Virus record (IMG/VR): IMGVR_UViG_2554235297_000015
Length of the DNA stretch: 32,474 nt
Reading direction: 5' to 3' (one strand)
Source: a virus
Taxonomy: Duplodnaviria; Heunggongvirae; Uroviricota; Caudoviricetes
Shown here: one piece after another, positions 17,986 to 18,185 of the stretch
How positions within the stretch are numbered: the stretch's first letter is position 1
Layout of the letters: the number at the start of each line of letters is the position of its first letter
Made by a program: the position numbers and the translations under genes
The notes under the pieces: generated by a model
The model's database searches: none
The model's input: only the letters and a program-made list of their open reading frames with translations
Told to the model about the DNA's origin: nothing

Positions 17986-18077
17986 ATGGCGACAAACGCG
18001 CTGTAATCGGCTGTGACAGCATAAACGCTTCATGGATGAGGCATAACAGCACCGCATCCCATAAATGCCGTCAGAAT

Positions 18078-18102
18078 CGTTTTTAAAAGGGTTTTAAAAA
18101 CG
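18078..18102. promoter_or_regulatory. perfect AT-rich palindrome CGTTTTTAAAA ggg TTTTAAAAACG in the G-I intergenic region
   Basis: 11 bp perfect inverted repeat with a 3 bp spacer, seen directly. Lies in a roughly 200 bp non-coding gap at the position of the Mu strong gyrase site. Confidence 0.45.
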
Positions 18103-18137
18103 GTTTTATTTCCCCTTTTATCCTTTCCCGTTATGGC

Positions 18138-18154
18138 AGGGTGCTGAACACCCT
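18138..18154 (+). promoter_or_regulatory. dyad element copy B (AGGGTG ctgaa CACCCT), upstream of gene I
   Basis: Perfect 6 bp inverted repeat with a 5 nt spacer. 15 nt of it are identical to copy C at 30057..30071. Confidence 0.45.
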
Positions 18155-18185
18155 CCACAGTACCCCGTGTTCCCCTTCCGTCATC

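Follow-up and report, generated by a model that had tools for sequence, protein, structure and literature searches.

Here we describe the gap between genes G and I of a Mu-like transposable prophage, which lies within a window of 32,474 nucleotides (nt) from IMG/VR virus record IMGVR_UViG_2554235297_000015 (the window is the whole stretch of DNA that was analysed, and coordinates refer to it unless another record is named). On balance we favour the view that this gap is a homologue of the central strong gyrase site (SGS) of phage Mu, with an AT-rich palindrome placed in its right arm, and that it also holds a possible weak transcription terminator and a late promoter for gene I. An earlier note on this stretch had already suggested a counterpart of the SGS here, and the suggestion has fared well in part: synteny, a weak but specific similarity to Mu, helically phased A/T tracts and a high gyrase motif score speak for it, while blastn finds no match to the Mu gap and the predicted site ranks 6th among the motif sites of the window. 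The features of the region are as follows.

17434–17985, + strand: gene G, virion morphogenesis protein (Pfam PF05069 Phage_tail_S, E 1.7e-25; RefSeq)
17979–18025, no strand assigned: predicted left arm of the gyrase site (−63 to −17), including the conserved block CAAACGCGCTGTAAT
18026–18061, no strand assigned: predicted G-segment core, with position 0 at 18042 and the 4-nt overhang CATA at 18042–18045
18062–18121, no strand assigned: predicted right arm, with A/T tracts at 18080–88, 18092–100, 18104–11 and 18116–21, about 11 bp apart
18078–18102, no strand assigned: perfect 11-bp AT-rich inverted repeat, CGTTTTTAAAA (18078–18088), ggg, TTTTAAAAACG (18092–18102)
18103–18111, + strand: T-rich tail GTTTTATTT, adjoining the palindrome and forming with it a weak candidate for an intrinsic terminator
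18116–18132, + strand: TTTTATCCTTTCCCGTT, found again with one substitution outside the window, about 200 bp inside the left end of the prophage
18140–18167, + strand: late-promoter-like element GGTGCTGAACACCCTCCACAGTACCC, containing part of a dyad at 18138–18154
18195–19310, + strand: gene I, head protease/scaffold (Pfam PF10123 Mu-like_Pro, E 4e-98; start as in PGAP/RefSeq)

Under this proposal the gap (17986–18194) would be a composite control region laid out as in Mu, whose record has a 196-nt G-I gap with the G stop codon, the gyrase cut, a TransTermHP terminator, the promoter PI and then gene I, in that order. Gyrase would bind and cut near 18042–18048, and the A/T tracts of 18062–18121, palindrome included, would serve as the right arm that wraps the C-terminal domain (CTD) of GyrA and presents the T segment. 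As in Mu, a supercoiled loop growing from the central site would then help to join the prophage ends, since the site lies near the middle of a 35.7-kb prophage, and would thereby lead to transpososome assembly and replicative transposition after induction. At the RNA level the palindrome and the following GUUUUAUUU would form a weak terminator of the late transcript running from lys to G, and 18140–18167 would be the late promoter for I. For this prophage, gyrase cleavage and its processivity, any consequence for replication, and the activities as terminator and promoter are what we infer from the features computed here.

Those features are the synteny, the central position, the conservation pattern, the A/T phasing, the motif score and the recurrence of the promoter element. 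The likeness to the Mu SGS starts with its surroundings: both sites have G and I as neighbours, the gaps are of similar size (196 nt in Mu, 200–209 nt here, depending on the start codon of I), and both are near-central, the predicted site lying 53.7% of the way from the left end of the prophage, about 1.3 kb off its exact centre, and that of Mu at 48.7%. The placing of this locus at the position of the Mu SGS by the earlier note was therefore sound. In each phage the cleavage site (here predicted) is followed at +37/+38 by the motif TTTTTAAA-N4-6-TTTAA within an AT-rich phased right arm, and then by a hairpin with a GTTTTATYTYCC tail and the late promoter PI. This motif was first spotted by eye; as the pattern TTTTTAAAN{4,6}TTTAA it occurs once in the 36.7 kb of Mu (17913–17931, in the right arm of the SGS), once in the window (18080–18100) and, for each of five enterobacterial relatives, a single time upstream of I, where none would be expected by chance. 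An ungapped scan of Mu SGS positions −10 to +75, counted from the annotated cut at base 17880 of the Mu record, against both strands of the whole window gave its best match in this very gap, on the + strand, with 42 of 86 identities (z 5.1), and with 64 of 86 (z 4.5) when the same match is reduced to its strong/weak pattern of G+C versus A+T. The alignment pairs Mu 17880 with window position 18048 and so puts position 0 at 18044. In other respects the two sites differ. The core reads GG/CATA/ACAG in this prophage, the A/T tracts form a perfect palindrome here and none in Mu, and their phasing is stronger here; moreover the Mu site is proven by cleavage, footprinting, genetics and structures, whereas the present one is a prediction.

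What is known of the Mu site makes the right arm the part to watch. In Mu's SGS the left arm can be removed without effect, whereas its right-hand counterpart is indispensable, bears phased bending signals and brings in the T segment (PMC10052514; PMC13284261). According to a 2026 structural paper, the G segment takes up about 35 bp, and an unbroken stretch of 49 bp is wrapped on the GyrA beta-pinwheel, that is, the CTD (PMC13284261). With position 0 at 18042, the 49-bp wrap would cover about 18062–18110, which is essentially the block of 18070–18113 that is invariant among E. coli variants of this prophage.

The phasing of this arm was measured with a sliding Fourier measure of A/T periodicity in 66-nt windows at periods of 10–12.5 bp. 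The segment 18058–18123 ranks first of 32,409 such windows, with a period of 11.0, and the right arm as a whole has a motif sub-score at the 97.9th percentile of the window. In base composition, 18070–18125 has 30% G+C against 54% for the window, as the AT-rich context described in the earlier note would have it, although 197 other 56-nt windows are lower. Across nine E. coli variants, 22 of the 81 columns in 17989–18069 are variable, about the rate of change of silent sites, and in the 44 columns of 18070–18113, as in 18129–18167, there is no variable column at all. In all 55 E. coli genomes with the prophage, identity over a 70-nt block around the palindrome is 95% or more. Judging from these substitution patterns, the helically phased A/T tracts are under purifying selection.

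Relatives collected via the I protein (from Intestinirhabdus, Trabulsiella, Buttiauxella, Photorhabdus and Xenorhabdus) extend the pattern, all five retaining AATCGTTTTTAAA(A/C)GGGGTTTAA..GGGG upstream of I, and the G-I gap is also the top periodic window of its locus in L002 and L005. In 10 of 43 more distant Mu-like prophages, from beta- and gamma-proteobacteria, the most periodic window of the 6-kb locus falls in the G-I gap, and where this gap measures 99 nt or more, it stands in the top 0.5% for periodicity in about half the cases. This suggests that A/T phasing of about 11 bp may be a widespread structural feature of the G-I gap. The distant loci with a strongly periodic gap (at about locus positions 2100–2500) include L007, L011, L015, L016, L021, L024, L031 and L040.

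The second line of evidence is the gyrase motif itself. The motif published by Sutormin et al. (2019) covers 130 bp, with a core from −16 to +19 and arms of 10.75-bp periodicity, and it ranks the SGS top in Mu (PMC6379681). We approximated it by strand-symmetric ridge regression on 442, and then 682, published pairs of site and score (PMC6379681 supplement), with the matching 400 kb of W3110 as the sequence and the coordinate convention set from two inverted copies of IS5. The rebuilt motif has a cross-validated r of 0.90 and a root-mean-square error (rmse) of 1.2, and as the 240 added sites left the rmse at 1.2, the model stays approximate. As a control, it puts the SGS at the top of the Mu genome with position 0 at 17876 (GGCATAA/AATC/AGCC), in agreement with the centring of the 133-bp fragment of Sutormin et al., and for 16 held-out published scores around an inserted SGS it reaches an r of 0.90. 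Several other forms of the motif were dropped: counting matches to the published 133-bp consensus, exact or as strong/weak, did not bring the SGS near the top of Mu, and asymmetric expectation-maximization, strong/weak-coded arms and mean-plus-absolute-antisymmetric fits of the strand maximum gave worse cross-validation or overfitting, the latter in the models that allowed for strand asymmetry.

With this approximate matrix, the best site of the gap has its position 0 at 18042 and scores 8.44 in the first fit and 9.11 in the refit, compared with 10.07 for the Mu SGS. It lies 38 bp upstream of the TTTTTAAA motif and within 2 bp of 18044, the position homologous to the Mu cut in the ungapped alignment; alternative placements of position 0 are that same 18044 and, by motif similarity (GGCATAA/CAGC), 18047. 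The spacing recurs, since the best gap site is found 36–38 bp upstream of the right-arm motif in Mu, in the window, in L002, L003, L005 and L006 and in an Sp18-like prophage (L057), and in L004 with the first fit only; the Sp18-like prophage carries GATTTTCTAACCTGTATTTAACGGG, near to the right arm of Mu, with its best motif site 37 bp upstream. The left arm, into which the 3′ end and stop codon of G fall, has a sub-score at the 99.9th percentile of the window, and in seven phages of three lineages with different left arms both arms stand at the 96th–100th percentile of their own sequence, the core ranging from the 12th to the 98th. Among the E. coli variants, 18042 stays the best site of the gap, with scores of 5.5–9.6.

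Several results weigh against an SGS homologue in this gap and have to be set beside these. Among the motif sites of the 32.5-kb window, 18042 comes only 6th; its core sub-score, at the 81st percentile, is ordinary, and 8 core columns vary among the E. coli variants. The rebuilt motif, besides its rmse of 1.2, under-predicts the top sites, and since scores of at least 8.44 occur 1.6–4 times per 10 kb in the first, 442-site fit, the motif score by itself is modest evidence. A Klebsiella phage with the palindrome has no good motif site at the expected distance. Comparison of the Mu gap with this gap and with the prophage by blastn (word size 7) gave no significant similarity, so that the check by alignment with Mu that the earlier note had called for holds for the ungapped scan, whose best match falls in the gap, and fails for blastn; a pairwise MAFFT alignment of the two gaps was set aside as unreliable outside short blocks. 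As the right arm of Mu's own SGS ranks only 631st of 36,652 by periodicity, phasing alone is no validated predictor. Finally, Oram and Pato in 2004 reportedly found that several G-I sites of Mu-like prophages are cut by gyrase without supporting Mu replication.

Two minor observations belong with the motif and periodicity scans. [quoted passage not shown] In Mu the strongest A/T periodicity of about 11 bp is found inside gam (L045 5943–6010) rather than in the SGS, and this gam segment is also the best blastn match in Mu to the palindrome region of the window (28 nt, 86%), which is probably a compositional coincidence.

The palindrome was what had drawn attention to the gap, and its description is exact: the 11-bp inverted repeat at 18078–18102 is perfect, and allowing one mismatch extends the arms to 14 nt (18075–18088 and 18092–18105). 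Perfect inverted repeats with arms of at least 11 and spacers of at most 10 number 4 in the window, against 0.07 expected from first-order Markov simulations. The other three, with arms of 12–13 bp, lie at 29604–29633, 9623–9648 and 7916–7943; that of 9623–9648 stands at the 3′ end of a Mor/C-like gene, and Mu likewise has a predicted terminator after C. The weight that the earlier note had placed on the symmetry is another matter. Dyad symmetry is kept only in this E. coli lineage, in a Buttiauxella prophage (perfect) and in a Klebsiella phage (one mismatch), and it is lost in Intestinirhabdus, Trabulsiella, Photorhabdus and Xenorhabdus, where the first arm and the A/T phasing are nevertheless kept. 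Because the second arm no longer pairs in four relatives that keep the tracts, the conserved property, as far as these alignments tell, is the pair of A/T tracts one helical turn apart and not the hairpin. Nor is the predicted cleavage inside the palindrome, which occupies +36 to +60; it falls about 36 bp upstream, near 18042–18048.

How far might the palindrome and its tracts be explained without gyrase? The palindrome may act mainly as RNA, as an intrinsic terminator of the lys-to-G late transcript (hairpin 18075–18105 plus GUUUUAUUU) with no special gyrase role, and we regard this as unlikely. The 31-nt RNA hairpin is a stable one (−9.6 kcal/mol, z −6.1, with 0 of 200 shuffles as good), and in Mu the corresponding place holds a terminator predicted by TransTermHP, its tail nearly identical (CCCGTTTTATCTTCC in Mu, ACGGTTTTATTTCCCC here). 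In addition, L002 and L003 carry a canonical GC-rich terminator right after G, with hairpins of −10.5 and −14.6 kcal/mol, and because this terminator has decayed in the present E. coli lineage (z −0.16 for the version in the window), the palindrome with its T-run is the only hairpin-plus-U-run that remains. Such a terminator would have a stem that is nearly pure A-U, however, with 2 G-C pairs in 11 and −6.3 kcal/mol (the −9.6 is that of the 14-bp version), and the + strand of the gap yielded no hit in a terminator scan whose minimum is 3 G-C pairs. There is no T-run after the palindrome in L003 or in the Klebsiella phage, four relatives have a broken hairpin with the A/T tracts kept and no compensatory changes seen, and the invariance reaches past the hairpin to cover 18070–18113. 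A dual role as gyrase arm and terminator is plausible, the two roles being compatible, and is weakly supported. As to the decayed terminator itself, at positions 2310–2345 of L002 and L003 it consists of AAACGCGC...GCGCGTTTT and a U-run, and E. coli (17994–18030) keeps the 5′ half CAAACGCGCTGTAAT and has lost the pairing and the U-run; the L002 tail, CGTTTTATCTTCC, is identical to that of Mu's predicted terminator, which in Mu lies on the other side of the gyrase core.

Other proteins than gyrase might read the DNA. One possibility is that the phased A/T tracts are curved DNA for H-NS, Fis, HU or IHF, either activating or silencing PI from upstream or acting as a general nucleoid-structuring A-tract cluster, with gyrase not the reader, to which we assign a small chance. 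The tracts lie 20–90 bp upstream of the late-promoter element, A-tract clusters with 10–12-bp periodicity have been proposed as nucleoid-protein targets (PMC3820752), and a similar conserved A/T cluster is found near the left end of the prophage, where the gyrase motif score is low. On the other hand, the gap contains no IHF consensus, the other two copies of the promoter element have no A/T cluster upstream, and the similarity is specific to the right arm of Mu's SGS; the 36–38-bp spacing to a high-scoring gyrase core and the high-scoring left arm would also go unexplained. A second possibility is that the dyad symmetry is itself functional, the palindrome serving either as a cruciform-forming site or as an operator bound by a dimeric DNA-binding protein of phage or host, which seems to us very improbable. 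Perfect symmetry over 11 bp at so low an expected frequency, its invariance in the nine aligned E. coli variants, the high identity of the block around it in the 55 genomes, its retention in Buttiauxella and, with one mismatch, in the Klebsiella phage, and a DNA hairpin of −8.6 kcal/mol (z −5.6) speak for such an operator. Yet the symmetry is the part lost in the four relatives named above, Mu has no such palindrome, and the motif is single in the window, which makes it no reiterated operator.

The cluster near the left end deserves a description of its own. It is the sequence AACGGGTTTTAAATGCTTTTAAAAAGAGTTTTATCCTTACCCGTT at L048 1636–1684 (NC_011601 2716111–2716159), outside the window and about 180–225 bp from the left end of the prophage. 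With 18116–18132 it shares the A/T tracts and the 17-mer TTTTATCCTTWCCCGTT, which occurs twice in 41.3 kb where 0.01 would be expected, and it is conserved in three other E. coli variants, with one divergent. Its gyrase score is low, and this copy keeps the nucleoid-protein or structural explanation alive. It might even be, though we think it quite unlikely, that the phased A/T module (about 45 bp: TTTTATCCTTWCCCGTT together with two TTTTAAA-type tracts) goes beyond a gyrase arm and is a structural element of double use, repeated at the centre and near the left end, with the two sites brought together by gyrase or nucleoid proteins into a closed prophage domain and the central copy also ending the lys-G transcript. 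If true, this would allow the way in which the Mu 'prophage domain' ties the centre to the L end to be approached from the sequence. The left-end copy also forms a hairpin (AACGGGT...ACCCGTT), followed by TTTT.

Returning to the gap as a composite control region, its promoter part rests on an element that recurs. The earlier note had marked a dyad at 18138, and it is there, as AGGGTG-ctgaa-CACCCT at 18138–18154; its guess that the region combines a topological site with a promoter for I fits the finding that the element around this dyad recurs where Mu has Plys, PI and PP. The element GGTGCTGAAC.CCC.C..CAGTACCC has three copies on the + strand of the window, beginning at 9981, 18140 and 30057, and besides the copy before I these are as follows.

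9981–10008, + strand: promoter-like copy after the Mor/C-family activator gene (9188–9655) and before the holin gene, a Plys-like position
30057–30074, + strand: promoter-like copy in a 53-nt gap before the gp46-like baseplate gene, a PP-like position

Before I, CTGAACNCCCTC is conserved in the relatives, and as noted 18129–18167 is invariant among the E. coli variants. A scan of 17000–19000 for sigma-70 promoters found nothing, as would be expected of activator-dependent late promoters. From its position and recurrence, 18140–18167 is probably PI, the promoter for I, dependent on a C-type activator. This resembles the late promoters of Mu (Plys, PI, PP and Pmom, activated by C, a member of the Mor/C family) in that a shared element stands at three syntenic places, and differs from them in that the Mu promoter sequences that we fetched do not resemble GGTGCTGAAC.CCC.C..CAGTACCC. 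The I and gp46 copies both begin 53–54 nt ahead of the start codon; if the activator site were centred near −43, I and gp46 would have a very short leader.

No new principle is involved, as work on central gyrase sites of Mu-like prophages goes back to 1990 and included a comparison across prophages in 2004. That comparison, by Oram and Pato, is said to have covered the G-I sites of Sp18 (E. coli O157 Sakai), FluMu (H. influenzae), S. Typhi CT18 and N. meningitidis, and the E2348/69 prophage, to which the window corresponds, was reportedly not in the tested set. Like those sites, the present one is a candidate SGS placed between G and I in a Mu-like prophage. The outcome for G-I sites of Mu-like prophages was mixed, only the E. 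coli one substituting well in Mu, and the gyrase sites of pSC101 and pBR322 did not replace the Mu SGS (PMC10052514). Plasmid and chromosomal sites (pSC101, pBR322, Topo-Seq) share with the gap the degenerate 130-bp motif, a core with two arms of periodically modulated G+C, and the gap site fits both arms; unlike a Mu-type SGS, they have no role in the synapsis of transposon ends. If confirmed, the G-I gap would be a natural, diverged second Mu-type SGS of E. coli, with a different core and a more regular right arm, and would help to tell the requirements of gyrase (phased A/T tracts at +20 to +80 and the distance between these and the core) from incidental features (core sequence and left arm). 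Comparing the prophages also gives a signature that could serve for annotation, namely, in enterobacterial Mu-like phages, TTTTTAAA-N4-6-TTTAA at a distance of about 37 bp from the cleavage site, and, in distant ones, strong A/T phasing of about 11 bp in the G-I gap.

The extent of the gap depends on where I begins. Counted to the first ATG, in frame at 18186, the gap measures 200 nt; counted to 18195, the start chosen by RefSeq/PGAP, it measures 209 nt. Neither ATG has an obvious Shine-Dalgarno sequence ahead of it. The relatives from Trabulsiella and Photorhabdus have an in-frame TGA behind the upstream ATG, and because of this stop in two relatives, 18195 is probably the true start of I. 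By annotation this is the longest intergenic gap of the late (structural) half of the prophage, so that the earlier description of some 200 bp as unusually long is right for the late region and wrong for the prophage as a whole, early-region gaps being about 180–255 nt. A search of the gap with the covariance models of Rfam 15 returned no family beyond a chance snoRNA match (E 0.93).

As to the prophage itself, all large open reading frames of the window are on the + strand, and Pfam identifies a Mu-like transposable prophage with A, B, portal, F, G, I and T genes, including a MuB-like ATPase, a Mu-type portal, the major head protein T and the following transposase.

237–2279, + strand: Mu transposase (Pfam)

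The window matches E. coli O127:H6 E2348/69 (NC_011601) with 100% identity; there the prophage interrupts eutC. Of 5,426 complete E. coli genomes, 55 have a copy of 95–100% identity. The left end (TGTGGGGTAG...) recurs in other strains, where it is joined to unrelated genes, that is, at different insertion sites, which fits a transposable phage. The prophage ends at 1460 and about 37194 of L048, giving the length of about 35.7 kb, and the window covers it from a ner-like gene through the tail-fibre region. In the phage database, the closest deposited phage shares only 72% identity, in coding parts. Outside the window, TTCTGGGCG(G) repeats occur near the left end (L048 1476–1486, 1553–1562 and 1603–1611), with an inverted copy near the right end (37145–37159), and these are probably transposase-binding sites. 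A DNA methyltransferase gene (12303–13043) lies among the late genes of this prophage, directly ahead of that for the large terminase, unlike in Mu, where the modification gene mom is at the right end.

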